The notes: generated from the sequence alone by a model not told the origin. A stretch of 64,000 nt of DNA from an uncultured Gammaproteobacteria bacterium (GCA_965369325.1 CBDUQI010000002.1:5873-69872); one strand, 5' to 3'; positions 9,652-64,000 are shown, counted from the stretch's first letter. A program made the numbers and translations.

Positions 9652-10048
9652 CTTTCGCTCTACCGCTGTGTAGTTGTGGCTCGCCATGCGCGTACCCGAA
9701 GCCTTTGCGCCAGCCGTCCAACGTTAAAATGTACCAGATTCGAGGCGAACAGGATGTCACGTTTGTCTCACATGCATATTTATCTTAGCGCCATGCGCCC
9801 ATTTGTCCTGCAACACGGCGTGCTTGTGCGAGGCGGACTCGCCCCGACTGCCCGTCAATCTACTGGCACTTATGTGGCCAGGATCGACGACAGCGTACGC
9901 TTGTTGTCGATTTTCCCGCGACCGGCCTCGCCGGCCTCAACTTTCCCGACCTGCAACCGACATAGACAAGAGTTCGCCACCGGATGTTCCCGTGGCAAAG
10001 AACCAGGCCGGGCCCGCGCTGCGCAACCGGTATGCAGGGAAGAGAAGT

Positions 10049-15759: not shown

Positions 15760-15883
15760 TAGCCCGTAAGTCCTTAGGTGCTGTCGTTACGATGCTGTCG
15801 GTGACATGCTGGTTACACAGCCGTTGCTTGAACGCGGCGTAAGCGGTCGCGTCAAGGTCTTGCCTGCTGTATGGTTCGCGCCC

Positions 15884-26791: not shown

Positions 26792-27155
26792 CGGCATTTC
26801 GCGCAAACCGATCGCGTTTTGGTTATTGCCGGGCGAGGCGGGTTGAAAACTCTCACGCACCAGTGATCCCAAGCGGAGCGTTGCAAGCGCATGGCTGCGG
26901 TCTTGTTAAGTATTGGAAACTAAGACGGAAGTCGGCCCTACTGCTGGGCGCATTCGGACGCTGCGATGGCGCAAGTGGACAACCGTTGGCGTTTGAAAAT
27001 TCGTGCTGCAGTGCGCTCGTGCTGGTGCGGCTCTGAACGCTGTACTAAGATTATGTTACCCACGTTCCTTGGGGAAAACCCGGCGCATTGCCAACCGCAA
27101 TGGCCTGCGCAGGGAGGCGGATAAGGAAAGCACAAAAATTGTCAGGAGGGGAACT

Positions 27156-27815
27156 ATGCGATATCTCGTTAAGCGCGCACTTGGGTGTGCACTGTTTGCG
27201 ACGATGCTCATCAGTGGCGGAGCTTTTGCTGCAACCACTGCTTATATTTCCGGCCCGGATCTGGGGCTTGAGATTCCGGATAACAATCCGGACGGCTTGA
27301 CCACCACGCTCACCGTCGATGACACCGGTGTTGTGGGTGATGTGTCGGCAGTTGTTATCAGCGCGGACCACACCTGGGTAGGTGATCTGGTTGTTACGCT
27401 GACAGCACCTGATGGCACATCGGTGACGCTGATGGATCGTCCGGGCGTCGTCGATGACATCTGTTGCGGTAACGGAGCAGACATCAGTGCCAGCCTGGGC
27501 TTGGTATTCAGCGATTTGATTCCGCTGCCTGCTGAGGGCGCGGGCGCCAACGGTTGTGGAGCAGTCGGCGTTGATTGCGGCCGTGCCTTTGGTCCGGAAA
27601 GTGCGTTGAGCGCACTAGCAGGGGTGGAAGTCTCGGGCGACTGGACCTTGAGCATTTCCGATAATGCGGGTGCCGACGTTGGCACGCTAAACGGCTTTTT
27701 CCTGGTGGTTGAGACGGGCGAGTCTTCTCGCGCGGCCATGCCAATGCCAGCGATTGCCTTACTACTGTTCGCCGGCATCGCCGGTGCAGGCGTAATGCGC
27801 CGCCGCCGCAGCTAG
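27156..27815 (+). CDS. Stand-alone proprotein-convertase P-domain protein with PEP-CTERM-like C-terminal anchor
   Basis: RBS CAGGAGGGG. Signal peptide ending AFA. P-domain pattern IPDNNPDGLTTTLTV...VVISADHTWVGDLVVTLTAPDGTSVTLMDR...GDWTLSISDNAGADVGTLNGF. Tail PMPAIALLLFAGIAGAGVMRRRRS. Confidence 0.75.
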   Translation: MRYLVKRALGCALFATMLISGGAFAATTAYISGPDLGLEIPDNNPDGLTTTLTVDDTGVVGDVSAVVISADHTWVGDLVVTLTAPDGTSVTLMDRPGVVDDICCGNGADISASLGLVFSDLIPLPAEGAGANGCGAVGVDCGRAFGPESALSALAGVEVSGDWTLSISDNAGADVGTLNGFFLVVETGESSRAAMPMPAIALLLFAGIAGAGVMRRRRS

Positions 27816-48598: not shown

Positions 48599-49747
48599 GT
48601 GAGTGTGTACAGATTCAGCGAATTCGAGTTTGATGAGGAGCGGTTACGCCTTAGCTATCAGGGCGAGCTGACGCCACTGCGGCACAAAACAGCGTTATTG
48701 CTCAAGCTACTGCTGGGCGAACGTGGCGGTGTCCTCAGCAAGCAGCAGATTATCGATCAGGTGTGGCAACGGCAGATGGTTAGCGACCAGAGTGTGTTCC
48801 AGGCCATCAGCGAGCTACGCCAGCGCCTCGCGCCGGCCGGCGATTTGATCGCCACCCACCCAGGTATCGGTTACGAATGGATAAGCCCGGTGGCGTGCGA
48901 TCTGGTGGACACCACGCCCGTTGCAGCGGCATCGTGGCGGCTGGCGGCCGGCATTCTCGTGATGCTGTTGGCCGCGCCCGTGATTCGCGGAGACAGCACT
49001 CACCATCGCCTGTCGAACGCGGCGGCAGATATTTCATCGCAGCTGCCGGCAACACCGCCCATAGGCATCGGATCGGCAGCTGTCGGCGTGCTGGACAGCA
49101 CTCGGTTGGTGATGCCAGCGATGCGGGCTTTCGCGCAGGGGCTAGATCACCTTGGCGCGGGGCGGGCCCGCGAAGCGGAACGCCTTTTTTTGGTGGCCGC
49201 GCAGGAGAATCCCGCCTTTGCCGAGGCCTCACTAATGATCGGTGAGTCATTGCTGGCCCAGCAGCGTTACACCGAGGCGAGCGCGCAGGCGACCGCACTG
49301 CTCGGCGGCTCCGGCGAGGTCCCCTCGGCGCAGAGTGCGTACATCTCTGTGGCGGCGATGGACTTACTCAGCCGCATCAGCGAGCAGGCCGGACAGCCTT
49401 ATCAGGCGATCGCCTGGTCAGCGACCGCACTGGCACAGGCGCGCGAGCACGCATTTGTATGCACCGCCGCGGCCAGCTCTGATCGGTTGGCCCAGTTGGT
49501 GCGCGACGGATCAGCCGATCAAGCGCCCACGGGCGAGGAGCCATTGCAGTCGGACCGTGTTCCCGCGCATCTTCAGGACCAGGCCAGCGATGCCTTGTCG
49601 GCGGCGGCCATTATCTCGGAGCATGCCCCCTCACGGGCGCACTGCGAGGAGATCGGTGCGTTGCCGGGTGAGTCTGTGCCGGGCATCCGCGTTGCGGCTC
49701 GCGCGGTGCTCATGCGCCGGTGTGTGCGCCCTGTCGGGCTGGTTTGA
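48599..49747 (+). CDS. ToxR/CadC-like membrane-bound winged-helix (OmpR/PhoB-type DNA-binding domain) regulator
   Basis: N-terminal YRFSEFEFDEERLRLSYQGELTPLRHKTALLLKLLL...QIIDQVWQRQMVSDQSVFQAISELRQRL...GIGYEW. One TM segment (WRLAAGILVMLLAAPV). TPR-like periplasmic part. GTG start. Confidence 0.8.
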   Translation: MSVYRFSEFEFDEERLRLSYQGELTPLRHKTALLLKLLLGERGGVLSKQQIIDQVWQRQMVSDQSVFQAISELRQRLAPAGDLIATHPGIGYEWISPVACDLVDTTPVAAASWRLAAGILVMLLAAPVIRGDSTHHRLSNAAADISSQLPATPPIGIGSAAVGVLDSTRLVMPAMRAFAQGLDHLGAGRAREAERLFLVAAQENPAFAEASLMIGESLLAQQRYTEASAQATALLGGSGEVPSAQSAYISVAAMDLLSRISEQAGQPYQAIAWSATALAQAREHAFVCTAAASSDRLAQLVRDGSADQAPTGEEPLQSDRVPAHLQDQASDALSAAAIISEHAPSRAHCEEIGALPGESVPGIRVAARAVLMRRCVRPVGLV

Positions 49748-49843
49748 GCCGATTTTAGGCAGATTTGAGCGCTTTTTTGATGCGCTAGAAGCTTGGCGCT
49801 AACAGTATTGGGATCCTCTGTTTACCTCTGGAGGAGTCCAATA

Positions 49844-50584
49844 ATGCGAGTTCTTTTTTCTGCGCTGATGCTATCGATCGCCGCTGTGGCCTGTAGCAAC
49901 GCCACGTCTGCGGCGACTGAACCCTGTGATGCCAAAGCGATTCGCGGCGCTCTTAAGGCCTATCTGCCCGGCGAACTGGACATATCACCCACCCCGGTAG
50001 AGGGGCTGTGCGAAGTGGCACAAGAGCTGCGTGTGCTGTACGCCTCGCCAGATGGCAGTTTCGTGTTGCAGGGACCTCTGATCGATACCGCCAAACGTCT
50101 TGATCTGACCGCCGAGCGCCTGGGCGCTGCGCGCCAGACGCTGCTGGCCAAAGAGTCGCCTCTGGGTACCTACGACTATCTTGCCAACACCACACCGCCA
50201 GCGCATACCTTGACTGTCATCACCGATATTGATTGTGCTTATTGCCGGCGCTTGCATGCCAAAATGGATGAGTACAATGCCGCCGGAATCGAGTTGCGGT
50301 ACCTCATGTTGCCACGGGCCGGTCGCGACTCGGTGTCTTATCAGAAGGCGGTAGCCGCCGCGTGTTCACAATCGCCCACCGAGGCCATCACCGAGTACAT
50401 GAACGGAGCTGCCCTGGCGCAACAGCCGACGAGTTGCGCGCACAATATTGATCGTCACATGGCGCTGGCCCAGCGTCTTGGCGCAAACAGCACGCCTTCG
50501 TTTATTTTTCCGGATGGCACACTGACCGCCGGCCTGATGCCGCCGCAGCGTTTGCTTGAGGTGCTTGAAGCCAGCGCCGAATAG
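49844..50584 (+). CDS. DsbC/DsbG-family periplasmic thiol:disulfide interchange protein
   Basis: RBS GGAGGAG. Signal peptide MRVLFSALMLSIAAVA. Thioredoxin-fold CAYC active site within VITDIDCAYCRRLH. C-terminal STPSFIFPDG. Confidence 0.85.
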   Translation: MRVLFSALMLSIAAVACSNATSAATEPCDAKAIRGALKAYLPGELDISPTPVEGLCEVAQELRVLYASPDGSFVLQGPLIDTAKRLDLTAERLGAARQTLLAKESPLGTYDYLANTTPPAHTLTVITDIDCAYCRRLHAKMDEYNAAGIELRYLMLPRAGRDSVSYQKAVAAACSQSPTEAITEYMNGAALAQQPTSCAHNIDRHMALAQRLGANSTPSFIFPDGTLTAGLMPPQRLLEVLEASAE

Positions 50585-50692: not shown

Positions 50693-51298
50693 TTATTTTA
50701 TCCGCACCACCCTGACCGTGCGGTTGAGCCCTTCTACTGCCATCCGGAAGCTGCCTAAAGCGCCCCGCTTGATGGTGATCTGAGGCCGTGAGGCGCGGTA
50801 AGAGACGCGCCCGTTTTGTGCCTGTTTCCATACCTGGCCGTTTTCCAGCCGAAATAACGTCTTGCCACTCCACCCGGAAAAGTCACCGTCGTAACGGGTG
50901 ACAATCTCCTGGATGCTCTCGGCGATGCGTTTGTCCTCCAGCCCGAAATCGGCTTCGGTAATCACCATGCTCTCATTCGCCCCACCCGCCTGCGGGGTGT
51001 GAGTGGCCACCGTGACCGGTTGTGATGGGGCTGGCGATGGCTTAGGCGCCGGGTTTACCGGTGTGGCAGGCGATGCGGGCATGATGGCGGCTGAGGTCTC
51101 GTTGGGCGCACTTCTACGGGCCAGCTTGTCAAAGCATTTGAGTCGACGTGAATCTTTGGCAATTTGGGCACACTCGCGCAGCTGCGCGTGCACGGCCTCT
51201 ACGGCGTTGGCGGGTGCCGGACTTAGCGCGACGGCGGCGCCCGCCATCGCGATCAGTGAACATAATTTGGTATTTAGCAGCATTGTTTCTTTCATCAA
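50693..51298 (-). CDS. Secreted hypothetical protein
   Basis: Signal peptide ...LIAMAGAAVALSPAPANA. Pro/Ala-rich linker. Conserved-looking C-terminal domain (GKTLFRLENGQVWKQ...ITIKRGALGSFRM). No family recognised. Confidence 0.6.
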   Translation of the reverse strand: MMKETMLLNTKLCSLIAMAGAAVALSPAPANAVEAVHAQLRECAQIAKDSRRLKCFDKLARRSAPNETSAAIMPASPATPVNPAPKPSPAPSQPVTVATHTPQAGGANESMVITEADFGLEDKRIAESIQEIVTRYDGDFSGWSGKTLFRLENGQVWKQAQNGRVSYRASRPQITIKRGALGSFRMAVEGLNRTVRVVRIK

Positions 51299-51481: not shown

Positions 51482-53611
51482 ATGACCGACAACTCCGTGG
51501 ATTTCGCGCAGCAATTTCACCAGGCCTGCCAGCTGCATGAAAGTGGCGAGTTGGAGGCGGCGCGGCTCGCGTACCTAAGTCTGCTCAGCGAGCAACCGGA
51601 GCATGCCGAGGTATTGCATCGGCTCGGAAATATCGAGCTGCGCTATGGGCAGCTGCAAAGCGCAGAGCAGCGCGTTGCCCGCGCGCTGCAGCTGCAGCCG
51701 GATGCGCCGGGATACCAGATTACGCTTGGCAATATCCTGCGCGCTGCGCAGCGCCCGCAAGAAGCCCTTGCGGCGTATCGAGCAGAGCTGGCGGCGCGGC
51801 CGGACTTTGCTATCGCCCATCAGCAGGTAGGGCTGATGATGCTGGAAGGCGGGGAGCCGGCGGGCGCAGTGCGCAGCTTGCTCAAAGCGGTTGAGCATGC
51901 GCCGGATCTTGCCAGCGCGCACAACTACCTTGGGCGCGCGCTGAACAATCTTGGCAATTTCCCGCAAGCGGCGAATGCTTTTTTGAGCGCGATTGAGCGC
52001 CAACCCCATTTCCCGGAGGCGTATAACAACCTGGGGCACGTCCTGCGTGCGCAGGGCAATATGCGCAAAGCTGCCGAAGCGTTCACGGAGGCGGTCAGGC
52101 AAGACCCCGCGGATACACGCGCACAGCATAATCTTGGCACTGCGCTGGCGGCCCTGAACGATGCGCCGGGTGCCGTGCAGGCGTTTAAGGAAGCCATCCG
52201 CCTCGATCCGGACAATGCCGACGCGTGCCACAATCTGGCGGTGGTGTTGCACGATAAGGGCCTGCTGGATCAGGCGTTGGAGTACTACGACAAAGCGTTG
52301 AGCGTGGACGCCACACGTGCCGATACCCTGAGCAGTCGAGGCGCCGCCCTGCAGTCCATGGGGGCGTTCACACAGGCGCAGGGCAGTTACGAAGCTGCGC
52401 TACAGGTCCATGCCAACCTACCGGCGGCGCTGGCGGGGCTGGCAGGTCTGTTGCATATGCAAGGGCGTGACCAGGAGGGCTTGGCCTTGCTGGAACCGCG
52501 GCTAGCCGCCGGCATGCGGGCGCCCGAGGTGTTGGGCAGTTACGCCGATATGATGCGCGCCACCGGGGACACCGCGCCGGCCAGGGCGTTGCTGACTCAA
52601 ATCATGAGTCATCCTCGGTTGACGGCTGACCAGCAGTTGCAGTTGCACTTTAAGATGGGCGATTTATGCGACGCCGACGGCGACTACGATCTGGCGTTCG
52701 AACATTATCAACGCGCCAATGGCCTGAAGCGCACCGGCTTTGATCCGGACAAGCATGCGCAGCAGATAGACAGGCTAATCGTGTACTTCGATGCTGAGCG
52801 TTGCGCGGGAGGCTCCGCCCCCCTGGCCGAGCCGTCGCAGCTGCCTGTATTTATCGTTGGGATGCCGCGTTCGGGTACCTCGCTGGTGGAGCAGATTGTG
52901 GCCAGCCATTCGCAGGTGTTCGGGGCTGGCGAGCTAAACCACATTGGCGCGATCGTGCGGCACCTGGTTGGCCAGCACACCCTGGGCACGCAGGCCCCTT
53001 TAGGGTGGCCCGAATTACTGGATCAGGTGCCCGCCCAGCGACTTGGAGAATGCGCAACCGAGTACCTGATGCAACTGCGTGCGATGGACCGTAACGCACT
53101 GCGTATCAGTGACAAGATGTGGCTGAATTTTGAGCACCTGGGCCTGATTGCCCAGTTGTTCCCCGGCGCTCGCGTGCTGCACTGTACGCGCGACCCGCTC
53201 GATACCGCGCTGTCCTGTTACTTCCACAACTTTTTCCAAACCATCGCGCTGCCGTTTTCATACCGCCTGGCTGACATTGGTGAGTATTACCTGGACTACG
53301 TGCGCCTGATGGACCACTGGCGTAAGGCGTTGCCGCTGCGCATGCTGGATGTGCCTTACGAGGCGCTGGTGGCCGAGCAGGGGCCAATCAGTCGCGCGCT
53401 GATCGATTTTCTTGAGCTACCGTGGGATGAGGCCTGCCTGCGTTTTCATGAAACACCGCGGGTGGCGCTTACTGCCAGCTACGCGCAGGTGAAAAAACCC
53501 ATGTACAGCAGCTCGGTTGGGCGCTGGCGGCACTACGAGCGTCACCTGGCGCCGCTGCGCAAGGTGCTGGACGGCGCTGTGCAAGGTCGCCCCGCGCGGT
53601 GGACGCCATGA
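51482..53611 (+). CDS. TPR-repeat + sulfotransferase protein 1
   Basis: About 430 aa of TPRs, then a PAPS-type sulfotransferase: 5'-PSB FIVGMPRSGTSLVEQI and 3'-PB CTRDPLDTALSCYF. C-terminal VGRWRHYE. ATG 51482 is preferred over TTG 51464. Confidence 0.85.
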   Translation: MTDNSVDFAQQFHQACQLHESGELEAARLAYLSLLSEQPEHAEVLHRLGNIELRYGQLQSAEQRVARALQLQPDAPGYQITLGNILRAAQRPQEALAAYRAELAARPDFAIAHQQVGLMMLEGGEPAGAVRSLLKAVEHAPDLASAHNYLGRALNNLGNFPQAANAFLSAIERQPHFPEAYNNLGHVLRAQGNMRKAAEAFTEAVRQDPADTRAQHNLGTALAALNDAPGAVQAFKEAIRLDPDNADACHNLAVVLHDKGLLDQALEYYDKALSVDATRADTLSSRGAALQSMGAFTQAQGSYEAALQVHANLPAALAGLAGLLHMQGRDQEGLALLEPRLAAGMRAPEVLGSYADMMRATGDTAPARALLTQIMSHPRLTADQQLQLHFKMGDLCDADGDYDLAFEHYQRANGLKRTGFDPDKHAQQIDRLIVYFDAERCAGGSAPLAEPSQLPVFIVGMPRSGTSLVEQIVASHSQVFGAGELNHIGAIVRHLVGQHTLGTQAPLGWPELLDQVPAQRLGECATEYLMQLRAMDRNALRISDKMWLNFEHLGLIAQLFPGARVLHCTRDPLDTALSCYFHNFFQTIALPFSYRLADIGEYYLDYVRLMDHWRKALPLRMLDVPYEALVAEQGPISRALIDFLELPWDEACLRFHETPRVALTASYAQVKKPMYSSSVGRWRHYERHLAPLRKVLDGAVQGRPARWTP

Positions 53612-55062
53612 GTGTACAGGCCTATCTGGCGGCCGGCCTGAAGGCCCAGCGTGCCGGTCAGTTGCCCGAGGCCGCGGTCCACTTCAAGCAGGCGGTTACC
53701 GAGGCGCCGGGCGATGCCCGCGCTTGGACCTGTCTGGGCAGCGTGTTGCAAATGGGCGGTCGGTACGAGGATGCACGGACGTGTTATCGCAATGCGCTCA
53801 AGGCGGATGCCACCTACCCGGATGCAACCTACAACCTGGGCACCCTGAATCAGGGCGAGCGGCAGTTGGATGAAGCGCTTACGGCGTATCGGCGCACGCT
53901 GGAACTGGCACCGGCGCATGCCGGGGCACTGGCGGGCATGGCTACCATTATGGATTGGCGCGGGCAGGACGCTGAAGCCCTGCAGCAACTGCAACAGCAA
54001 ATGGGTGAAGCGCCCGCCGATCTGGAGCTAGAGCTGATTTATGCGCGCCTGCTCTCGCGTGACGGTCGCCACCAAGTTGCCCTGGAACGGTTGCAGGCCG
54101 TATTGGCCAGTGCGGATCTTACCGGGCACCAACGCTCGCGTGTGCATTTTGCGCTGGGGCGTATTTGTGATCGGCAGGCTCGTTACGATGATGCGTTTGC
54201 GCACTTCGAACAGGCGAACGTCCTGAAGGGCGCGCGCTTTGATGCAAACGCATTCGGCGAATTTGTTGACGAGTTGATCGAGACATTCAGTCCGGCTGCG
54301 ATGGCCGATATGGCGGACTCCGGTGTGAGCGACGACCGGCCCATCTTTATCGTCGGTCTGCCGCGCTCGGGTAGCACGCTGCTCGAGCAGATTCTGGGCG
54401 CCCATCCGCAAGTGCTGGCCGGCGGCGAAAGCACCGCATTCCCGCGCGTGGCGGCGGCGTTGGCCAACGCCGCCCACGGCGGTAGTTATCCGGGTTGTAT
54501 CGCCGCATGCGAGGCGCACGAGCTTGAGGGCGCGGCGCATACCTACCTGGGGCAGTTGCCCGATACCACGCAGCACGTCACCGACAAGTTGCCCGGTAAC
54601 TTCATGCACGTCGCGAGCATTTCACGCGTATTGCCCGGCGCGCGCATTGTGAACTGTGTGCGCGATCCGCTTGAGACTGCCTTGTCCTGCTACATGCAGA
54701 ATTTTGCGGGCGGTAGTTTGCCCTACACCTACAACCTGACGCACCTCGCGCACTACGTGAACGACTACCGGCGCCTTATGGCGCATTGGCAGCAGTTGTG
54801 CGCGCACGGCGTACTTACCTTGCACCAGGTGCATTACGAATTACTGGTGCAAGACCCGCAGGGGCAAATCCGGCAGTTGCTGCAACAACTGGAGTTGCCA
54901 TGGTCTGAGCAATGCCTGGCCTTTCACGAGGTGGCGCCACCCGCATTGACCGCAAGCAATGCGCAGGTTCGAAAGCCCATCTACCGCGATGCCCTGGGCC
55001 GTGCCGAACACTATCGCGCCCATCTTGGCACCTTGATTGAGCAATTGGATTCGCCGGCCTGA
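53608..55062 (+). CDS. TPR-repeat + sulfotransferase protein 2
   Basis: FIVGLPRSGSTLLEQI and CVRDPLETALSCYM. The ATG 53608 forms an ATGA overlap with the upstream stop; the track's GTG 53599 is possible. Confidence 0.85.
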   Translation: MSVQAYLAAGLKAQRAGQLPEAAVHFKQAVTEAPGDARAWTCLGSVLQMGGRYEDARTCYRNALKADATYPDATYNLGTLNQGERQLDEALTAYRRTLELAPAHAGALAGMATIMDWRGQDAEALQQLQQQMGEAPADLELELIYARLLSRDGRHQVALERLQAVLASADLTGHQRSRVHFALGRICDRQARYDDAFAHFEQANVLKGARFDANAFGEFVDELIETFSPAAMADMADSGVSDDRPIFIVGLPRSGSTLLEQILGAHPQVLAGGESTAFPRVAAALANAAHGGSYPGCIAACEAHELEGAAHTYLGQLPDTTQHVTDKLPGNFMHVASISRVLPGARIVNCVRDPLETALSCYMQNFAGGSLPYTYNLTHLAHYVNDYRRLMAHWQQLCAHGVLTLHQVHYELLVQDPQGQIRQLLQQLELPWSEQCLAFHEVAPPALTASNAQVRKPIYRDALGRAEHYRAHLGTLIEQLDSPA

Positions 55063-55228
55063 TTGCCCGTGTCCGTGCCTTCAGTCCGTTTGGTCATCGC
55101 GCGCCGGTAGGCCGGAAAGTACCTGAGCCGCGCTGCGCGCCGCGCCGAGTGTCTTGTTACCTCACGGTTTATCCTGGCCCATCGGCATGAGGCTTGTCTT
55201 GTGTCGCTGTGCTTGCAAGACTGCGGGC

Positions 55229-57211
55229 ATGGACAAGCGTCAGATGAAGATGGTCGAGGTATTGCGCCGCGGCGTTGAACAACACCAACGTGGCGAGTTG
55301 AATGACGCGCGTCGTAATTATCTTGAGTTCCTGCGCGTGTTCCCGGAGAACACACAGGCGCTGCATCTGCTTGGCAGCGCCGAGGCGCAGGCCGGGAACT
55401 TGAATGCGGCCGAGAGCAGTTTGCGTAAAGCGACCCGAGCCAGTGACGCGCAGGCCGCGCATTGCAATACGCTGGCCACGGTGCTGAAGCAAAAGAAGGA
55501 GATGGAGGAGGCTCTCATCTGGTTTGATCGCGCACTGGAACTGGAACCTGGCTTTGGTCCCGCTTGGCACAATCGCGGACGCCTGCGTCACAGTCTTGGT
55601 CAGTTCGATGCCGCCACCGCAGACTTGCGCGCCGCTGCGGAGCTAATGCCCGGCAATGCGCGCGTGCACAACGATCTTGGCATGTTGTACGAGTCGCAAG
55701 GCATGTTCGTCGAGGCAGTAAGCTGCTTCGAGCAGGCGATTCGCGCCGACGTCAAGTACGTCTATGCACACAACAATCTTGGGGCCATACACCTCACCTG
55801 CGGTCGGTTGCCGCAGGCGGCACGTTGTTTCGAGCAGGCGATTAATTGCGACCCTAACTTTGCCAGCGCGCACGACAATCTGGGGCTGGTGCTGAGCGAG
55901 CAGGGGCGGGCACAGGAGGCGTTGGCTTGCCACGCACGCGCCGCCGCGCTGGCGCCGGAACGGCCTTCGCCACTGGCCAATCAGGGCACCGTGTTGCAAG
56001 GTCTTGGCCAGATTGACGAGGCGCAGGCGCGCTTTCGCGCCGCGCTTGCGCTGGATGAGGCCAGCCCTCTGGCACTGGCCGGGCTGGCGGAACTGCACGA
56101 GTGGCGCGGGGAGTATCAAGAGGGCCTGACTCTGGTGGAGACCCCAGCCAATGAGGACAAGCCTCACCCCGATGTGGTGCTGGCCTGTGCGCGTCTGCTG
56201 CGGCGAGTTTACCGCGTGCCAGAGGCGATTGATCTGCTTCAGCCCTGGCTCGATCAGGTGGAGCAACTGGGGAATGTGCGGGCACGCTATCTGCACTTTA
56301 CCCTCGGCCATCTGTTGGACGATGAAGGATGTTACGCCGAGGCGTTCAAGCAATTTGAGTTGGGCAACCGAAGGCGCGGGGCCACCTTCGATCCGGCCCG
56401 CTGGTCCGCTTACGTGGACAGCATGATCGCGATGTTCTCCGTGCGCCGCATGCGCGATCTGCCCCGTGCCAGTGAGTTGCCCGCGCCTATGGTGTTTATC
56501 GTAGGCATGCCACGCTCAGGGACGTCGCTGGCTGAGCAGATCCTGGCCGGGCACCCGCAAGTGCTGGCAGCCGGTGAGCGCGCACAACTGGGCCAGCTGG
56601 CGCAGGCGCTGCCAGCGCGGCTGGGTACGGATGCGCCTTACCCAATGTGCGTAGCAAGCGTGGATCAGTCGGTTCTGCAGGGCATGGGCCGCGAGTACAG
56701 CGTTGATCTGACGCCGTTGCCCGACGGCGTGGATGTGGTCACCGACAAGATGCCGCTTAACTTCCATCACATTGGTCTTGCCATGCTGATGTTTCCCAAC
56801 GCGCGGGTGATCCACTGTACCCGTGATGCGGTGGATACCTGTTTGTCGTGCTACTTTCAGGACTTCCCGGATCCGGCGCTTAACTTCAGCACACGTTTGC
56901 GTGATACCGCTGAGTACTATCGTGACTATCGGCGTCTGATGCGGCACTGGGCGAGCCTGCCCGGATTGAGAATGATGGAGCTCAATTACGAAGCGTTGGT
57001 GGAGGACACCGAAGGGCAGACGCAGGCGTTGCTGCGATTTTTGCAACTGCCGTGGGACGATACCTGCCTGCGGTTCTATGAATCTGCACACAACCAACAT
57101 ACCGCCAGCCATGCGCAAGTGCGTCGACCCATCTACGCAAGCGCCGTCGGGCGTCGTCATCACTACCGTGATTTTCTGGGCGATCTGCGCTCGCAGATCG
57201 ACCGTCCCTGA
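55229..57211 (+). CDS. TPR-repeat + sulfotransferase protein 3
   Basis: FIVGMPRSGTSLAEQI and CTRDAVDTCLSCYF. ATG 55229 (MDKRQMKMVEVLRRG) is preferred over the track's TTG 55154. Confidence 0.85.
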   Translation: MDKRQMKMVEVLRRGVEQHQRGELNDARRNYLEFLRVFPENTQALHLLGSAEAQAGNLNAAESSLRKATRASDAQAAHCNTLATVLKQKKEMEEALIWFDRALELEPGFGPAWHNRGRLRHSLGQFDAATADLRAAAELMPGNARVHNDLGMLYESQGMFVEAVSCFEQAIRADVKYVYAHNNLGAIHLTCGRLPQAARCFEQAINCDPNFASAHDNLGLVLSEQGRAQEALACHARAAALAPERPSPLANQGTVLQGLGQIDEAQARFRAALALDEASPLALAGLAELHEWRGEYQEGLTLVETPANEDKPHPDVVLACARLLRRVYRVPEAIDLLQPWLDQVEQLGNVRARYLHFTLGHLLDDEGCYAEAFKQFELGNRRRGATFDPARWSAYVDSMIAMFSVRRMRDLPRASELPAPMVFIVGMPRSGTSLAEQILAGHPQVLAAGERAQLGQLAQALPARLGTDAPYPMCVASVDQSVLQGMGREYSVDLTPLPDGVDVVTDKMPLNFHHIGLAMLMFPNARVIHCTRDAVDTCLSCYFQDFPDPALNFSTRLRDTAEYYRDYRRLMRHWASLPGLRMMELNYEALVEDTEGQTQALLRFLQLPWDDTCLRFYESAHNQHTASHAQVRRPIYASAVGRRHHYRDFLGDLRSQIDRP

Positions 57212-57216
57212 GCGCC

Positions 57217-58647
57217 ATGGGCGATCCGGCCAGCGCTGAGCAGCAGGCGCTAAGCGCGCTTGGTAAGGCCCGGCATGCCCGTGCGCAGGACGATCTTGCG
57301 CAAGCCGAGCAACACTATCAACAGGTGTTGGCTTATGCCGGCGCGGCCGGGCGTCGCACCTTCTGTGAGGCGTGCGCCGAACTGGGGTTTGTGTATCTGC
57401 TCCGTAGACGACACGATCAAAGTCGCGCGTTGTTCGAGCGCGCCCTGGGAGTCATGCCGGCGCTTGCCGCGGCGCGGTACGGCATGGGGTTGCTGGACGC
57501 GCTGGCCGGTGCGTTCGAGCCGGCGCTCGCCCGTTTTCGCGCGTTGCTGCGAGAGTATCCACATATGGGTGAGGCGGCCCAGCAATTGGTGGCCAGCAAA
57601 CGTTTTGAACACGCGGATGATGCGGATATCGGGCTCATCGAGGCCGCTCTTACTCAGGCTGAGGCGCTGCCGAGCGCACGTGAGAAGCTGTCCTTCGCGC
57701 TGGCCAAAGCACTGGACGACTGCGGCGAATGGGCGCGCGCGTTTTACTTCGCACAGCAAGCCAATCGGCTAAAAAAAGCCCGTTGTGCGCCGTTTGATGC
57801 GCTCGCCGCTTGCCGCTACCTGGAAGGCATTGCTGAAGTGTTCGATCGCAGCACGGTGCAACAGATGGGACCTGCACCCGCGCAGGCCTTGCAGGCGCAC
57901 AAGCCGCCACGTCCGGTATTCATCGTTGGCATGCCACGCTCAGGCACTACGCTGCTTGAGCAGATGTTAAGTGCCCATCCGCAGGTGCACACCGCCGGCG
58001 AACAGGCGATTGTGGATGAGGCCACCTTGGGTGCGTTGATGCCGTACCCGCAAAGCTGCCGGGAGGGCGGCGATGCGCGGCTTGCGCCCATCCGTCAGGC
58101 GTACACCCAGATGTTGCGCGCACATGCCAACGCGAAGCCGAGCTCGCGCGTGATACTGGATAAGTACCCGATGAACTTCCTTCACCTGGGGCTTATCCGC
58201 CAACTATTTCCGGAGGCCGTGTTGATTCACAGCTATCGGCATCCGGCGGATACTTGCCTGTCGATTTATTTCCAGGACTTTCGCAGCGGCAACCTGTACG
58301 CCAACAATCTGCAGGACCTTGCCGGCACCTATCGCAGCTACTGCGAATTAATGCAGCACTGGCATCGGATGCTTCCGGGGCAGATTTTTGACTGCGAGTA
58401 CGAGGCCCTGGTGGCAAACCCGGAAACGGTGATACGCGAGGTGCTGGCCCATTGCGGTCTCGGATTTGATCCGGCTTGTCTCGCACACACGTCCAATCCT
58501 GGCATGGTGGATACGCTCAGCCGTTGGCAGGTGCGCCAGCCCATCTACACGCGGGCGGTAGGGCGCTGGCGCCACTACGAGGAGTTTATCGGCGCGTTGG
58601 TTGCACTGCCCGAATTCTCGCCAGCGAATCGAGACATCCAGGCATGA
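57217..58647 (+). CDS. TPR-repeat + sulfotransferase protein 4
   Basis: FIVGMPRSGTTLLEQM and SYRHPADTCLSIYF. The start lies 5 nt after the upstream stop. The 3' end overlaps the convergent 58575 gene by 73 nt. Confidence 0.85.
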   Translation: MGDPASAEQQALSALGKARHARAQDDLAQAEQHYQQVLAYAGAAGRRTFCEACAELGFVYLLRRRHDQSRALFERALGVMPALAAARYGMGLLDALAGAFEPALARFRALLREYPHMGEAAQQLVASKRFEHADDADIGLIEAALTQAEALPSAREKLSFALAKALDDCGEWARAFYFAQQANRLKKARCAPFDALAACRYLEGIAEVFDRSTVQQMGPAPAQALQAHKPPRPVFIVGMPRSGTTLLEQMLSAHPQVHTAGEQAIVDEATLGALMPYPQSCREGGDARLAPIRQAYTQMLRAHANAKPSSRVILDKYPMNFLHLGLIRQLFPEAVLIHSYRHPADTCLSIYFQDFRSGNLYANNLQDLAGTYRSYCELMQHWHRMLPGQIFDCEYEALVANPETVIREVLAHCGLGFDPACLAHTSNPGMVDTLSRWQVRQPIYTRAVGRWRHYEEFIGALVALPEFSPANRDIQA

Positions 58648-59930
58648 CGGCTGGCAAAGAACTGCTGTAAGCCAAAAATTTCGGCGTCATTCAAGGCGGG
58701 ATGCCAGACTTCAAAAATCAGCACACCACGTAATTCATCACTGCGGTTCCACGCCTCATGTTCAAAGCTGTCATCAAAAATCAGCAGCTCACCGGGCATC
58801 CACTGGCGCGTTTGCTCGCCCACGCGGATCGCGCAGTCTGAAGGGATCTGCACGGCCAAGTGAACGGTCAGACGCACGTTCATCTGGCCGTAGTGCGGCA
58901 CGATGTGCGCGCCCGGCTCCAGCAACGAGAAGAACACCTCCGGCATGTAGCCATCGGCACGCGCCAGCGGTAGCTCGTCCATCAGCGCGCTAGTGCGTGG
59001 GCAACGTTTGCGGTTGGTTTCCAGCGCGCCCGCGCGGTCCAGGTGGAAGGCCGTCCAGTTGCGCGAGCCGGCCAGGGTTGAGAAGTCAGTGCCCTGCGGC
59101 GTCACCGCGTCGCCGCCATCACCGGTACCGTGGATATAGGGCTCAAATTGCTCGTGGTGACCGAGTAGCGCCTGGTACTCATCCGCAATCATGGCGAACT
59201 GCGCTCGCACGCGCTCGGCCCAGGCAAATTCCTCTGCCTCGTACCAGGCGCGCGCTGGCATCTGCGGCATCAGCAGGAACTCAGGGCGTTGTTGCGGATG
59301 CAGCCATTGTTTAGATACCTGGCCGCGCAAAATGGCAAAACATTGCGCGAGCCGTTGCGTGGCATCCTTGCCGTCCCGCTCGCGGGCTAGCTGCAATGCA
59401 TCCTCGAGCATACCCACATAGTGCTGGCGCAGGGTTTTTTGCGCGGTTGCCACTTGCTCGCGCATGCCGGTGGGAAGGCGCGTGTCGTTGCTGGCGGCAC
59501 TTAGCGCGGGTTGCACCGCCAGCGCGTGCTGAAAACTCGCAGCCGCATCCTCTTGTCGTTGCAGTTGCAGTTCCAGCAGACCTTTACGAATTAGGATCAT
59601 GCCTTGTTCGGGTTGTAACCGATGAGCCTCATGCAGCGCTTGCACCGCAGCGTGCAGTTCGCCGCTGGCGGCCAGCAGCAAGGCATATCGAAAACGGCTC
59701 TCCGGATGTGTAGGGTGCTTGGCAATCGCGACTTCCAGCAGTTGCCGGGCCTGATCCAGGTTGCCGGTATTGGCAGCGATCTGCGCCAGGCCCAGGCGCG
59801 CCTGCAGATGTTCAGGAGCCAGCTGCAACGCGCGGCGAAAACAACCTATTGCCTCGGGCAGCTGTCCCTGCTCAAGCGCTTGTTTGCCCCGTTGCACGAG
59901 CGCATCCGGAGACTGCGAGCCACCGGGCAC
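58575..59930 (-). CDS. TPR-repeat + aspartyl/asparaginyl beta-hydroxylase domain protein, paralog 2
   Basis: Same architecture and motifs as the 15884 gene: HPQQRPEFLLMP, LEPGAHIVPHYG, RLTVHLAV, FDDSFEHEAWNRS. The GTG start shares one nt with the upstream stop (TAGTG). Confidence 0.85.
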   Translation of the reverse strand: MPGGSQSPDALVQRGKQALEQGQLPEAIGCFRRALQLAPEHLQARLGLAQIAANTGNLDQARQLLEVAIAKHPTHPESRFRYALLLAASGELHAAVQALHEAHRLQPEQGMILIRKGLLELQLQRQEDAAASFQHALAVQPALSAASNDTRLPTGMREQVATAQKTLRQHYVGMLEDALQLARERDGKDATQRLAQCFAILRGQVSKQWLHPQQRPEFLLMPQMPARAWYEAEEFAWAERVRAQFAMIADEYQALLGHHEQFEPYIHGTGDGGDAVTPQGTDFSTLAGSRNWTAFHLDRAGALETNRKRCPRTSALMDELPLARADGYMPEVFFSLLEPGAHIVPHYGQMNVRLTVHLAVQIPSDCAIRVGEQTRQWMPGELLIFDDSFEHEAWNRSDELRGVLIFEVWHPALNDAEIFGLQQFFASRHAWMSRFAGENSGSATNAPINSS

Positions 59931-60580
59931 TACTTCATCCGCATCATGCAGTTAAACGCCACCACAATGCGTGGCCGCTGCCCCACATAGGCGAAAATCT
60001 CGTGCAGCAGGTACGAGGGGAAGATCACCAGCTTACCCGGCGCATGTTGCACCTGGAAGACACCCTGGTTAGCGGGCATGACCAGCCGCTGATTGCCAGC
60101 ATCCAGATACATGTCGGCCATCCCGCGCGGGTCGTGAAAGCGCACGGCGCCACTGTCGGGATGTTGCTTGCTGGTATCGCCTGGGTCTACGCAGAATACG
60201 CCTGACCAGGAGGCGTTCTGATGGTTATGCAACCCCTGAAAACCGCCATTTCGGGTCACATGAAACCATGCGTGGTATTCAAAGTGCAGCCGTTGCAGCT
60301 CCTCGGGTGAGTAGTCCGTGGTGCGATTGATGAGTTGCGCCAGACTGCTGTGGCAGAACCCGGCCAGTGTGCGCACCGGCGGGTCTGGCCAGTTAAATAG
60401 GTCGAAGTTGCTTTCAAACAGCGCCCCTTGCTGGGTGGAGCGGTGGGTCTTATTGCGGTACTGGTCACCGGCCTGCTCGCGGGCGATAAATAGCTCGGAC
60501 AGTTGTCCCAGCAGTGCGTGCTGCTCCGGCGGCAGCACGAATTCGGCAAACGGGACGGCGAACAGATGGGCAATTTTCAT
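59930..60580 (-). CDS. Stand-alone Fe(II)/2OG-oxygenase-like protein (TIGR02466 / 2OG-FeII_Oxy_5-like)
   Basis: GLHNHQNASWSGVFCV ... KLVIFPSYLLHEI ... RIVVAFN. Clear paralog of the oxygenase domain inside the 60610 fusion gene. Confidence 0.75.
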   Translation of the reverse strand: MKIAHLFAVPFAEFVLPPEQHALLGQLSELFIAREQAGDQYRNKTHRSTQQGALFESNFDLFNWPDPPVRTLAGFCHSSLAQLINRTTDYSPEELQRLHFEYHAWFHVTRNGGFQGLHNHQNASWSGVFCVDPGDTSKQHPDSGAVRFHDPRGMADMYLDAGNQRLVMPANQGVFQVQHAPGKLVIFPSYLLHEIFAYVGQRPRIVVAFNCMMRMK

Positions 60581-60609
60581 GGGCTTTTTGGCAGCGTCGA
60601 GGCGCCCGG

Positions 60610-63570
60610 TCAGCGGCGTCGGCGCGTCGTTTCAAGCCCCAGCGCCTGGCGCAACGGCCCAAGGTGATGACGATATTTGCGCCATCGGCCCACGGAGGAT
60701 TTGTAAGCGGGCTGGCGCACTTGCACGTGGCTGGCGGTGTTTACGACCCGATGGTTCTTGTGAAAGGCCAGACAGTCCTCGGACCAGGGCACGTCCAAGT
60801 ACTCCAGCATGAGTCGGGCTTGCCCTTCGATGTCGTCCACCAGTTCCTCGTACTGCACTTCCAGAATGCCGCCGGGCAGGATGGCACGCCAGTGATCCAT
60901 CAAGTTCTGATAGGTGAGATAAGTGCCGCCGACTTCGCGCAAGTCGTTGGTGAACCCGCGGTCGGCCGCGAACGAGGTGAAGTAACACGACAGGCAGGTG
61001 TCCATTGGATCACGTACCACGTGAATGATGCGCACGTTGGGCATCATCATGCGCGCCAGCCCCAGCAACGTGTAGTTGAAGGGCATTTTATCGGTGATCC
61101 TGAGCGCATCCGGGTTTAGTGCGCGCAAGCGCCCGGCGTAGTGCTCACCCACCTGCCGCCAGCCTTCCTCCTGCACCTCGCGCACCGATTCGGGGAGTTG
61201 CCCGTTTGCGGGCAACCAGGGGCCAATGCGACTGATACTGCGCCATAGATCGTTAAGCTCGCCGCCCCCGTGTATCTGCGGATGGCTGTCGAGAATCTGC
61301 TCGACCAACGTGGTGCCCGAGCGTGGCATGCCAACAATAAGCACGGGATGTTGTGCCGGCGTGCCACGCGGCTCGCGCGAGGCGAATACCGAGGGCGAGA
61401 AGGCTCGAATAATGCGTTCGGTATTGGCTTTTTCGTTTTCCAGATCGAACTGAACTTTGCGTCGCTTGAAGGCATTGGCCGCAGTGAAGTGTCTGAACGC
61501 TACCTCATGATCACCCAGGTTGTCGTAGGCGCGCCCGAGAGTAAAGTGCATGAGTGAGCGGTCCGATTCCGGTAACGCCTCGCCCTTGGCCAGCGACTCA
61601 TGCAATGCCGCAATCTGCGGGTCGTCATTGCGCCAGGTTTTGACAAACGCTAGGCCGTAATGAGCCGCGCCGCTGTCGGGGTTGGTCGCCAGGGCCTGCT
61701 GGTAGGACTCGCTAGCCTGCTCGAACATACCCATATCAGTGAACAGCGAGGCACGTGCAATTAGCAAAGCAACATCGTGCGGTGCCAGTAACAAGCCGGC
61801 CTCGTAGGCGGCTAGGGCTTCGCCCATGCGTTGCTCCTGGCGCAGCGCATTGGCCAGTTCGCGGCAATGGGAAACTTCCTCGGGCGCGAGCCCGCTGGCG
61901 CGTGCGAAATGCTGGCTCGCCGCGGCGAAGTCGGCCGTGCGGATGGCCACCTGACCTAGAACGTGCCAGCCCTCGGCGAGGTCCGGCGCGGACTGGGTCA
62001 TTGCCTCAGCCAGCCGCGTCGCTTCATCCATCTTGCCTTGCTGCAGGGCTATACGTGCGCGATCAAGGTCGCTGCTCGGGTCCTGTGTGCGAACCGGTAC
62101 CGGCGGCTTATCCAGCGGCAGTACATCAAAGGCGATGCTGATGCGCGAGCGATCACCCTCGAACGGGACTGTGCTGTGATAAAGATAGGATGGGAACAGC
62201 ACCAGTTGCCCTTCGACCGGCAGCACCGTACGGATGATGGGGGTTGCAGTGCTCTTCAGCTGCCCCGGCGGATGACCGAACTGAAGAGAACCTGCGCTCT
62301 GTTCGCGCTGTTCATCAACTGCCTCATCCGGCACGCACACGTAGTAAACGCCGCTCACCCATCCATCCGGGTGGATATGCGGGCGCTGATGGCCACCTCG
62401 CTCAAGCACGGTGGCCCATATGTGCAGACGCCAGTGGGCGGGCTGCCATGCCAAATACGGGTGGTCATCGCTGCCGACCGCGGCCAGGCGCTGGAAGTAG
62501 TCATTCACCGCCTGGTTGATGTGTTGCACCAAGTCCACGATCGGGCCGGTATCGCCCTCCAGCAGGTTTCGCGTCTGCTGCCCGCCGGTGGTCGTTTTGC
62601 CGGCGGGGTCCGGCGCCAGCGTGGGATGCTGCAGAATATGCTGCGCGAGACGTCGGTTCAGATCGGCCAGCGCGTCGTCCTGCCCGGTACCCGAAGCGTC
62701 GGCCGAAAACTGCAGAGCTTGCGTATGCACCAGCTGCTCGAGCCTAAGCAGCCGCATGGCGCTTTGGCTGTCACCGGCTTCGGTATGCGCGATGATTTGC
62801 AGCGACATCGCCGAGCGGTTACCCGGATCGACCCTCAGTACGGCCTGGGTGCGCGCGATAGCCTCGCCCGAGCGGCCGCGGGCAAGTTGCAGCGCGGCCA
62901 GATTGCATCCGGCCTGTACCATCGCAGGGTCCAGACGCAATGCTTCAGTGTAGGCTTGGATGGCCGCGTCAATATTATCCTGTGCCTGATAAGCGATGCC
63001 CAGATTGGAGTGGATCCCGGGCTCATCGGGCGCCAGGCTAAGTGCCTGCTGATACACCAAGATGGCAGCGCCATCCTGCTGGTCTGCATGCAGGGCGCTG
63101 GCGTAGTTGGACAGCAGTTGCGGATCGTTGCCCGCAAGCGGCAGCGCAGTTTCGTATGTCTCGATGGCTTTGCGCAACTGCCCGGCATTGCGTAGTTGGT
63201 TAGCCAGGTTGGTCCAGGCGGTCGCGTGAGAAGGGTCCAGTGCGGTGGCTTGCCGCGACCAGCTGATCGCCTCATCCAGGCGGCCTTCACCCTGCAGTAT
63301 CAGACCCAGGTTTACGTAGTAGTCGGGATTGGCATGAACGGCAATGGCACGCTGGATGAGCGACACCGCCGAGGCGATCTGGCGTGCATCAGCTGCCAGC
63401 AACCCCAGTAGGTGCATGGCATCGGGGTGTTGCGGGTTAATTCCGAGTATCTGCCGACACAGGCGTTCAGCCATAGCAAGGTGCCCGGCAGAGTGTTCTC
63501 CGACCGCTTGCGCATATAGCTGTGTGACGCTGATTTGTTCCACCGGCATCTCGATACCGACCCCTACCAA
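60610..63570 (-). CDS. Four-module fusion: TPR - Fe(II)/2OG-oxygenase-like domain - TPR - sulfotransferase
   Basis: aa 1-265 are TPR. aa about 275-505 form the oxygenase domain (HIHPDG at 62379-62362, GWVSGVYYV, LVLFPSYLYHS, RISIAFD). aa about 515-700 are TPR. aa about 720-986 form the sulfotransferase (LIVGMPRSGTTLVEQI, VVRDPMDTCLSCYF). The likely initiation codon is ATG 63549; TTG 63570 is the track start. Confidence 0.85.
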   Translation of the reverse strand: MVGVGIEMPVEQISVTQLYAQAVGEHSAGHLAMAERLCRQILGINPQHPDAMHLLGLLAADARQIASAVSLIQRAIAVHANPDYYVNLGLILQGEGRLDEAISWSRQATALDPSHATAWTNLANQLRNAGQLRKAIETYETALPLAGNDPQLLSNYASALHADQQDGAAILVYQQALSLAPDEPGIHSNLGIAYQAQDNIDAAIQAYTEALRLDPAMVQAGCNLAALQLARGRSGEAIARTQAVLRVDPGNRSAMSLQIIAHTEAGDSQSAMRLLRLEQLVHTQALQFSADASGTGQDDALADLNRRLAQHILQHPTLAPDPAGKTTTGGQQTRNLLEGDTGPIVDLVQHINQAVNDYFQRLAAVGSDDHPYLAWQPAHWRLHIWATVLERGGHQRPHIHPDGWVSGVYYVCVPDEAVDEQREQSAGSLQFGHPPGQLKSTATPIIRTVLPVEGQLVLFPSYLYHSTVPFEGDRSRISIAFDVLPLDKPPVPVRTQDPSSDLDRARIALQQGKMDEATRLAEAMTQSAPDLAEGWHVLGQVAIRTADFAAASQHFARASGLAPEEVSHCRELANALRQEQRMGEALAAYEAGLLLAPHDVALLIARASLFTDMGMFEQASESYQQALATNPDSGAAHYGLAFVKTWRNDDPQIAALHESLAKGEALPESDRSLMHFTLGRAYDNLGDHEVAFRHFTAANAFKRRKVQFDLENEKANTERIIRAFSPSVFASREPRGTPAQHPVLIVGMPRSGTTLVEQILDSHPQIHGGGELNDLWRSISRIGPWLPANGQLPESVREVQEEGWRQVGEHYAGRLRALNPDALRITDKMPFNYTLLGLARMMMPNVRIIHVVRDPMDTCLSCYFTSFAADRGFTNDLREVGGTYLTYQNLMDHWRAILPGGILEVQYEELVDDIEGQARLMLEYLDVPWSEDCLAFHKNHRVVNTASHVQVRQPAYKSSVGRWRKYRHHLGPLRQALGLETTRRRR

Positions 63571-63768: not shown

Positions 63769-64000
63769 ATGTACCTAGAGTTCTTCAATCTACGTGAGTC
63801 ACCATTCAGGCTTAGCGCTGATCCGGGATACCTGTTCCTGAGTAAATCGCATGCCCGCGCACGCGCGGGGCTGGAGTATGCGCTATACAAGCGCGAAGGC
63901 GTCATGGTGCTTACCGGGCCTATAGGCACCGGCAAAACCATGCTGGTGCAAGAGGTTTGCCGGGCCAGCGCCAAACAGGTGCTGATGTTGCACCAGACCC
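63769..64000 (+). CDS. ExeA/GspA-type AAA ATPase (PEP-CTERM/exosortase-locus-like), N-terminal 77 codons; runs off the window
   Basis: My translation reads MYLEFFNLRESPFRLSADPGYLFLSKSHARARAGLEYALYKREGVMVLTGPIGTGKTMLVQEV, the canonical ExeA N-terminus plus Walker A. Not in the track because it is truncated. An in-frame ATG at 63748 is an alternative start. Confidence 0.8.
   Translation, partial: MYLEFFNLRESPFRLSADPGYLFLSKSHARARAGLEYALYKREGVMVLTGPIGTGKTMLVQEVCRASAKQVLMLHQT

Follow-up and report, generated by a model that had tools for sequence, protein, structure and literature searches.

TPR-linked sulfotransferases and oxygenases in a recurrent bacterial gene cluster that may modify proteins or peptides

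To our knowledge, what is known of protein sulfation in bacteria comes essentially from a single enzyme, RaxST, whose substrate is RaxX, and thousands of genes are annotated as tetratricopeptide repeat (TPR) sulfotransferases with no function assigned. Iyer, Abhiman, de Souza and Aravind 2010 (PMC2938197) predicted bacterial operons pairing a dioxygenase of the beta-hydroxylase type, which would hydroxylate a protein, with a P-loop sulfotransferase that would then sulfate the new hydroxyl; sulfotransferases fused to 2-oxoglutarate (2OG) dioxygenases, a TPR-fused dioxygenase family and receptor-linked Syn9-gp52-like dioxygenases are described there as well. The locus analyzed here lies in a 64,000-nucleotide stretch of DNA from an uncultured Gammaproteobacteria bacterium (GCA_965369325.1 CBDUQI010000002.1:5873-69872, hereafter the window), where positions 51482-63570 carry seven genes for TPR-linked sulfotransferases and oxygenases, numbered g1 to g7 and referred to as the island. 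The logic of this island is anticipated by that work in comparative genomics. A preliminary description of the window knew of no characterized bacterial system of this composition, and this stood in the literature searched, which contained no experimental study of either TPR-sulfotransferases or proteins of TIGR02466 and nothing relevant on TPR-sulfotransferases together with TonB, PEP-CTERM together with sulfotransferases, or bacterial TPR tyrosine sulfation. Bacterial operons with a hydroxylate-then-sulfate logic had, however, already been predicted.

The seven genes and their enzyme families

Open reading frame (ORF) listing and Pfam searches resolve the island into seven intact ORFs, four in tandem on the plus strand and three on the minus strand (Table 1). 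The domain calls first made from the sequence alone (Sulfotransfer_3, Asp_Arg_Hydrox, 2OG-FeII_Oxy_5 and TPR) were recovered by the Pfam search, apart from the TPR of g4. Packing of the genes is tight, and the four junctions are as first described: the g2 ATG overlaps the g1 stop codon (ATGA at 53608), g3 and g4 are 5 nt apart (57212-57216), g5 and g6 meet at TAGTG on the minus strand (59930), and 29 nt separate g6 from g7 (60581-60609). The convergent g4 and g5 share 73 nt at their 3' ends (58575-58647), so that no terminator could fit between their transcription units. Three starts allow alternatives. A TTG start for g1 is available at 51464; for g3, ATG 55229 is more likely the true start than TTG 55154; and the database copy of g7 (P0001) is 100% identical but starts 32 codons downstream, giving 954 aa. 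None of the seven proteins has a signal peptide or transmembrane segment (maximum Kyte-Doolittle 19-residue mean <=1.46), in agreement with the cytoplasmic location proposed earlier. The G+C content of 51482-63570 is typical of the window and flat across it, and "island" therefore means no more here than a gene cluster.

Table 1. Coordinates of the island genes, their domains and nearby features in the window
Feature	Position	Strand	Content	Length (aa)	Match (E-value)
g1	51482..53611	+	TPR array and C-terminal TPST-like 3'-phosphoadenosine-5'-phosphosulfate (PAPS) sulfotransferase	709	Sulfotransfer_3 1.8e-40; many TPR models
g2	53608..55062	+	TPR and sulfotransferase	484	Sulfotransfer_3 7e-45
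g3	55154..57211	+	TPR and sulfotransferase	685 from TTG 55154	Sulfotransfer_3 3.4e-43
g4	57217..58647	+	Degenerate TPR-like helical N-terminal region and sulfotransferase	476	Sulfotransfer_3 2.5e-43
g5	58575..59930	-	TPR and AspH-type beta-hydroxylase	451	Asp_Arg_Hydrox 1.7e-44
g6	59930..60580	-	Stand-alone oxygenase	216	2OG-FeII_Oxy_5 2.4e-18
g7	60610..63570	-	Fusion of TPR, Oxy_5 oxygenase, TPR and sulfotransferase	986	2OG-FeII_Oxy_5 1.1e-25; Sulfotransfer_3 1.2e-40
g7 oxygenase domain	62086..62718	-	aa 285-495; invariant H-x-H...H, R-x-S motif		
g7 sulfotransferase domain	60613..61362	-	aa 737-986		
Possible associate	50693..51298	-	Secreted hypothetical protein, divergent from g1	201	No Pfam/NCBIfam match
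ATPase gene start	63769-64000	+	Positions 1-72 of TIGR03015 (XrtA/PEP-CTERM-associated ATPase); runs off window		TIGR03015 8.8e-21
Regulator	48599-49747	+	CadC-like winged helix with TPR region		
Disulfide isomerase	49793-50584	+	DsbC type		
Second TPR-AspH gene	15806-17197	+	TPR and Asp_Arg_Hydrox	463	1.1e-43
TPR and FG-GAP run	23643-44095	+	TPR proteins alternating with FG-GAP/UnbV_ASPIC proteins		
Metalloprotease	9803-12571	+	Reprolysin type (M12B) with DUF11 domain	922	
P-domain protein	27003-27815	+	Proprotein-convertase P-domain	270	

Five of the seven proteins carry a sulfotransferase domain, and all five score far above the Pfam cut-off for Sulfotransfer_3 (139.9-154.3 bits against 27). 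The sequence motifs were found as first described. Every copy has the 5'-phosphosulfate-binding (5'-PSB) loop xxFIVG(M/L)PRSG(T/S)(S/T)L, and the 3'-phosphate-binding (3'-PB) motif is RDxxxTxLSCY(F/M) in every copy except g4, which has RHPADTCLSIYF; the two motifs lie at aa 455 and 570 in g1 and at aa 446 and 557 in g3. In an alignment of 35 family members the PRSGT/S loop and the Arg and Ser of the 3'-PB motif are invariant. The Glu of an (A/G)GE tripeptide (GAGE, AGGE, AAGE, TAGE or GGGE) aligns with the second Glu of the "CGEE" of TPST; this residue, E274 in g2 and the equivalent of the TPST2 catalytic base E99, is invariant in the same 35 members, as is the "DK" Lys. Pairwise identity among the five domains is 37-50%, which marks them as old paralogs. 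A profile built from the five domains matched TPST1 (1e-20) and TPST2 (4e-17) best in the PDB, followed by polyketide synthase (PKS) sulfotransferases (4e-10) and by heparan and aryl sulfotransferases (~1e-4), carbohydrate sulfotransferases thus trailing TPST by 16 orders of magnitude. An AlphaFold2 (AF2) model of g2, of high confidence (predicted local distance difference test, pLDDT, 92.5; predicted TM-score, pTM, 0.90), was compared with known folds using Foldseek, and among sulfotransferases its catalytic part matched TPST2 and TPST1 best. By profile and model the sulfotransferase domains group, among solved structures, with TPST as opposed to carbohydrate or lipid sulfotransferases, a placement that the preliminary description had proposed as a check. 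The wider TPR-sulfotransferase family comprises 7,730 clusters at 50% identity (E <= 1e-30), most of them with an N-terminal extension of 200-500 residues, and some members carry 2-8 sulfotransferase domains. Giant homologs of 1,600-2,800 aa with three to eight such domains per chain were also seen (P0254-P0259).

TPR arrays, recognizable as OGT-like superhelices, belong to six of the seven proteins; g6 is an oxygenase alone, and the TPR-like region of g4 is degenerate. The earlier statement that each plus-strand gene pairs a TPR array with a sulfotransferase was accordingly sustained for g1-g3, but for g4 only in its sulfotransferase half. The N-terminal 230 residues of g4 have no Pfam TPR match and a weak match to the PrsT-TPR model of NCBIfam (5.7e-6); they do align to the TPR and linker columns of the family profile in hhalign, a comparison that is partly circular as g4 is itself in the profile. 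The closest Foldseek matches of the TPR part of the g2 model are the TPRs of OGT and SPINDLY (SPY). Between the window and a close relative, locus L085, TPR regions are as strongly conserved as catalytic domains (68-90% versus 76-87% identity).

The three oxygenases of the island, predicted to be Fe-dependent, have the DSBH fold and fall into two families. Those of g6 and g7 both pass the Pfam threshold for 2OG-FeII_Oxy_5 (66.8 and 90.4 bits against a cut-off of 27). TIGR02466, expected for both in the preliminary description, is reached by g7 (67.9 bits, cut-off 62.5) but not by g6 (52.3 bits). The two are distant paralogs, as had been suggested, with 32% identity over 120 aa (E 4e-13). In PF13759 oxygenases an invariant H-x-H...H replaces the canonical HxD/E...H, and it appears as HNHQN in g6 and HIHPD in g7, the histidines being H118/H120/H193 in g6 and H114/H116/H181, in domain numbering, in g7. 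This motif implies a putative three-His metal site. An Arg in the presumed 2OG-binding position follows the distal His by 11 residues, as R-I-V in g6 and R-I-S in g7. The AF2 model of g6 (pLDDT 93.5) first retrieved 3BVC and 2RG4 in Foldseek, both uncharacterized structural-genomics entries (TM-score 0.68-0.72 for 3BVC), and next Pseudomonas putida PPHD, an EF-Tu prolyl hydroxylase, Dictyostelium PhyA and human PHD2, with TM-scores of ~0.6 for PPHD and PHD2.

The third oxygenase, g5, belongs to a different family and scores 151.9 bits against the Asp_Arg_Hydrox cut-off of 22.6. Its residues 8-142 are matched by TPR models, and the oxygenase domain spans residues 243-411. Its closest relative is human AspH (E 2.3e-28 over the catalytic domain), with which it shares the two-His HxG...H iron site: PHYG of g5 aligns with the human PHTG, and FDDSFEHE aligns with FEHE in common. 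The human residues are H679/G681 for PHTG and H725 for FEHE. For the lipid hydroxylases LpxO and OlsC, g5 lies far below both NCBIfam equivalog cut-offs (OlsC, its best match there, 92.8 against 450; LpxO 50.4 against 500), and it has no hydrophobic segment. TPR-AspH proteins number hundreds of clusters. A second TPR and Asp_Arg_Hydrox gene, 43% identical to g5, sits among unrelated genes of the window, 36 kb from the island, so that TPR-AspH is not exclusive to the island. Its ORF overlaps a DUF547 ORF (14888-16150), and one of the two starts is therefore probably miscalled.

Related loci in genomes and metagenomes

Neighborhood conservation was assessed from two sets of 80 loci, one drawn from genomes with the TPR-type oxygenase domain as seed (a 7-sequence alignment) and the other from metagenomes with the g6 family as seed. 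Hidden Markov model searches of six-frame translations yielded 32 non-redundant loci with a g6-like gene and at least 2 sulfotransferase domains, 19 of which have at least 10 kb. The four-part fusion of g7 recurs in uncultured Gammaproteobacteria (977-983 aa, ~42% identity), and fusions of this type form 13 protein clusters at ~32-42% identity. A constant gene order also recurs, consisting of the fusion, then (always) the 216-aa Oxy_5 protein, then a TPR-sulfotransferase, opposite an array of convergent TPR-sulfotransferases that numbers four or more in the contigs of these Gammaproteobacteria; this order was found in L001, L003, L022, L037, L076 and L086 and in the metagenome loci L102, L105, L107, L112, L122 and L156. 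Each island holds 4-9 divergent sulfotransferase paralogs. Homologs of g6 fall into 418 clusters (55-91% identical), and g6 is the most conserved gene of the island and its marker. On viral contigs only distant relatives of the oxygenase were found (15 loci, <=39% identity).

The close relative L085 (g6 85% identical) reproduces the window gene for gene, with all seven genes intact including the TPR-AspH gene; its g1 ortholog is 83-85% and its g5 ortholog 79% identical. L085 even keeps the 73-nt convergent overlap (3350-3422), as well as a flanking 192-aa hypothetical protein and DsbC. More distant loci vary around the same theme. In L088, TPR-Oxy_5 and TPR-sulfotransferase are separate adjacent genes, equivalent to the fusion split in two, and the locus further carries a TPR-GT41 (OGT family) gene, a small oxygenase, a TPR-AspH gene and additional TPR-sulfotransferases. 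L086 adds a TPR-linked protein arginine methyltransferase (TPR-PRMT) and a second small oxygenase. TPR-GT41 accessories were found in L021, L088, L157 and L161, and TPR-PRMT accessories in L086, L102 and L122. Among the 19 loci of at least 10 kb, TPR-PRMT occurs in three, TPR-Oxy_5 in 16, a TonB-dependent receptor gene, directly upstream on the same strand, in 12, and an S-adenosylmethionine (SAM) methyltransferase in nine. AspH-type genes were seen in three, which are also the only ones among all 32, and are a minority accessory of related islands. None of the receptor, methyltransferase, GT41 and PRMT has a homolog in the 64 kb of the window, whose source contig of 82,373 bp runs ~18 kb further.

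The island core is thus a g6-like oxygenase, a TPR-Oxy_5 protein that is often fused to a sulfotransferase, and several TPR-sulfotransferases, usually headed by a receptor gene, and the window is a variant lacking the receptor in which an AspH module has been gained. The island type is widespread and conserved and no one-off, which bears out the neighborhood conservation that had been put forward as a check. The functional coupling of oxygenase and sulfotransferase, also proposed earlier, is well supported by the conservation of the fusion across lineages and by the split pair in L088. The g7 fusion places one oxygenase and one sulfotransferase in the same process, for which sulfation of the new hydroxyl is a possibility only.

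What the enzymes may act on

The reading preferred here is that the island encodes a cytoplasmic enzyme set that post-translationally modifies a protein or peptide; it is held tentatively, at somewhat less than an even chance. A protein or peptide substrate is favored on homology, since every catalytic module, including the GT41 and PRMT of relatives, is nearest to a protein-modifying enzyme among characterized homologs. Further support comes from the TPR regions, which are kept as well as the catalytic domains between orthologs, and from the lack of signal peptides and transmembrane segments. In such a scheme the TPR arrays would recruit the polypeptide substrate or substrates or hold the enzymes together, hydroxylation of side chains would fall to the AspH-type enzyme and to the Oxy_5 oxygenases with their PHD-like fold, and the TPST-like domains would move sulfate from PAPS onto Tyr and/or hydroxyls, possibly newly installed ones. 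The 4-9 divergent paralogs of each island might serve different sites or substrates. As most relatives have a receptor-headed island, a link of target or product to outer-membrane transport is probable.

Several observations weigh against this reading. Support from nearest homologs is indirect, and Sulfotransfer_3 in Pfam includes enzymes acting on non-protein substrates. No candidate gene for a substrate emerged: comparison of ten islands gave no conserved small intergenic ORF that could encode a precursor peptide, only near-identical lineages being matched, and no collagen-like ORF (a run of at least 6 GXY repeats, any frame) exists in the window. Because Oxy_5 enzymes lack the carboxylate ligand, their hydroxylase chemistry is assumed, and "2OG-dependent hydroxylase" is a family label. 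At scores similar to those of the protein hydroxylases, the Foldseek matches of g6 also list the small-molecule oxygenases PolD, AviO1/EvdO1 and HalD. Roughly 70 of the 80 genome loci have TPR-Oxy_5 genes with no sulfotransferase nearby, and many g6-like genes stand directly after a receptor gene with neither a sulfotransferase nor a TPR enzyme, as in L142 (4624-8212) and L146 (6703-10651). Finally, the conserved receptor is at least as easily explained by a small molecule that is transported. Small ORFs that did appear conserved across the ten islands were rejected as shadows inside coding genes. No Rfam family reached gathering score when the window, L001, L076 and L086 were searched for regulatory RNA upstream of receptor or island genes.

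The rival that fares best takes up the last of these objections, and holds that the enzymes tailor a siderophore-like or amino-acid-derived small molecule passing the TonB-dependent receptor, the TPRs serving only to assemble a complex. We consider this unlikely, though a serious contender. The placement of the receptor at the head of most islands and the minimal receptor and g6-like pairs of L142 and L146 argue for it, and the latter parallel the adjacent receptor-oxygenase pairs fiu-ybiX and piuA-piuC. The frequency of SAM methyltransferases points the same way, as does the resemblance of g6 both to small-molecule oxygenases and to the PiuC/YbiX-like 3DKQ. The PKHD-type hydroxylase gene ybiX is among the differentially expressed genes in a study of iron uptake in uropathogenic E. 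coli, and for receptor-linked dioxygenases a siderophore-like or amino-acid-derived metabolite is the reading given in the available passages of Iyer et al. 2010 (PMC2938197). However, the islands seen contain no non-ribosomal peptide synthetase, PKS, ATP-grasp, exporter or inner-membrane importer gene, and the window lacks the receptor and methyltransferase altogether. A long, conserved OGT-like TPR array fused to nearly every enzyme would be unusual for such tailoring, and the sulfotransferase domains are far nearer to TPST than to aryl or PKS sulfotransferases.

An envelope polymer or lipid is a quite improbable substrate. On this account, a version of which the preliminary description offered as its alternative, the enzymes would sulfate and hydroxylate an exopolysaccharide (EPS), lipopolysaccharide or membrane lipid, with the TPRs docking on an envelope-biogenesis machine and the AspH-type enzyme acting on acyl chains in the manner of LpxO/OlsC. 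Its basis was the ATPase gene that lies divergently adjacent to the island. This gene is real and matches TIGR03015, but a homolog is linked to 0 of 170 related loci; the linkage not being conserved, the EPS reading drawn from this neighbor is ruled out as a general explanation. No PEP-CTERM-tailed ORF was found in the window. Sugar-nucleotide genes (Epimerase_2 and DegT) do stand beside the island in L001, L003 and L031, but these belong to a single lineage, and no island contains a glycosyltransferase, flippase or polymerase gene. OlsC is the best NCBIfam match of g5 (1.9e-26), yet g5 falls far under the cut-offs, lacks a transmembrane segment and has TPRs as in human AspH, and the distance of carbohydrate sulfotransferases from the five domains argues in the same direction. 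It is very improbable that the neighborhood merely accumulated independent TPR enzymes by duplication with no common pathway, as the occurrence of single TPR-sulfotransferase, TPR-Oxy_5 and TPR-AspH genes elsewhere and the huge size of the sulfotransferase family might suggest, given the gene fusion, the translational coupling (ATGA, TAGTG) and an order kept across lineages at only ~40-60% protein identity.

Modification of a protein or peptide can also be cast more broadly, in a form that is speculative and rather doubtful. Many environmental Proteobacteria might possess a dedicated, eukaryote-like toolkit in which Tyr and hydroxyl groups are O-sulfated and Pro and Asp/Asn side chains hydroxylated, with O-glycosylation and Arg methylation added in some lineages. 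Each enzyme would be guided by its own OGT-like TPR array, and the set would decorate, ahead of secretion, a specific protein or peptide that is exported or associated with the outer membrane, perhaps a ligand or partner of the receptor. If true, this would be the first bacterial multi-enzyme pathway of protein O-sulfation beyond RaxST. The island is in any case a testable unit that ties TPR-sulfotransferases to two oxygenase families by fusion and conserved order. If the substrate were identified, at least 7,700 sequence clusters of one family would gain a function, the repeated occurrence of PF13759 oxygenases together with TonB-dependent receptors would be explained, and a prediction now a decade old, that the hydroxylation and subsequent sulfation of proteins originated in bacteria, would be put to the test.

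Flanking genes and comparison with known systems

Divergent from g1 lies a gene for a secreted 201-aa protein. Its N-terminal motif contains a Cys, its linker is rich in Pro and Ala, and its C-terminal domain, "GWSGKTLFxLENGQVWKQ", is conserved. The L085 copy is 71% identical, and homologs 36-39% identical occur beside the receptor and g6-like pair of L146 and inside the island of L156; the association of this protein with related systems may be due to chance. Just upstream of the island are the CadC-like regulator and the DsbC-type disulfide isomerase, DsbC being adjacent in L085 too. Further away, the same-strand run of TPR and FG-GAP/UnbV_ASPIC (CRTAC1-like) proteins contains five or six copies at 33-54% identity, together with a 950-aa Cytochrome_C554/TPR protein and a CN_hydrolase. 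Members of the FG-GAP/ASPIC family were also found beside related islands or g6-like genes (L086, L133, L131 and L046), and given their high copy number this may be chance. The M12B metalloprotease and the P-domain protein represent eukaryote-like extracellular families that are unusual in bacteria.

Set against described systems, the island resembles several in part. With the PEP-CTERM/XrtA EPS locus it has in common only the adjacent TIGR03015 N-terminus, a linkage absent from the 170 loci. The lipid hydroxylases LpxO and OlsC are of the same Pfam family as g5 but equally distant from it, and their NCBIfam cut-offs are not reached. The island is not a system of the RaxST-RaxX type, as it has neither an adjacent RaxX-like precursor, judged by the intergenic ORF comparison of ten islands, nor a peptidase-transporter gene. 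Operons in the available passages of Iyer et al. 2010 (PMC2938197) hold PhyH-methyltransferase fusions, PAPS synthetase and collagen-like or tail-collar substrates, none of which is among the annotated window genes; conversely, the TPR-sulfotransferase arrays, the Oxy_5-sulfotransferase fusion and the 216-aa marker oxygenase do not feature in those passages. TIGR02466/PF13759 proteins are the family of g6 and of the g7 domain, both of which pass the Pfam threshold, and their H-x-H...H metal motif differs from the HxD...H of PHD-type enzymes. Human AspH shares with g5 its TPR and oxygenase layout and its HxG...H two-His iron site, whereas g5 lacks the transmembrane anchor and the endoplasmic reticulum lumen topology, and no EGF-domain substrate is evident.

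The sulfotransferases of the window share with TPST1/TPST2 and RaxST the Sulfotransfer_3 domain, the 5'-PSB and 3'-PB motifs, the catalytic Glu and the "DK" Lys. Unlike TPST, to which their identity is ~22-26%, they are soluble proteins of the cytoplasm that carry a TPR superhelix at the N-terminus, lack a Golgi membrane anchor and come as 4-9 paralogs per locus. In overall design they follow the principle of OGT and SPINDLY: the island's catalytic domains differ, being sulfotransferases and oxygenases, but the combination of a TPR superhelix with a catalytic domain is the same, and GT41 enzymes with TPRs are themselves found in some related islands.

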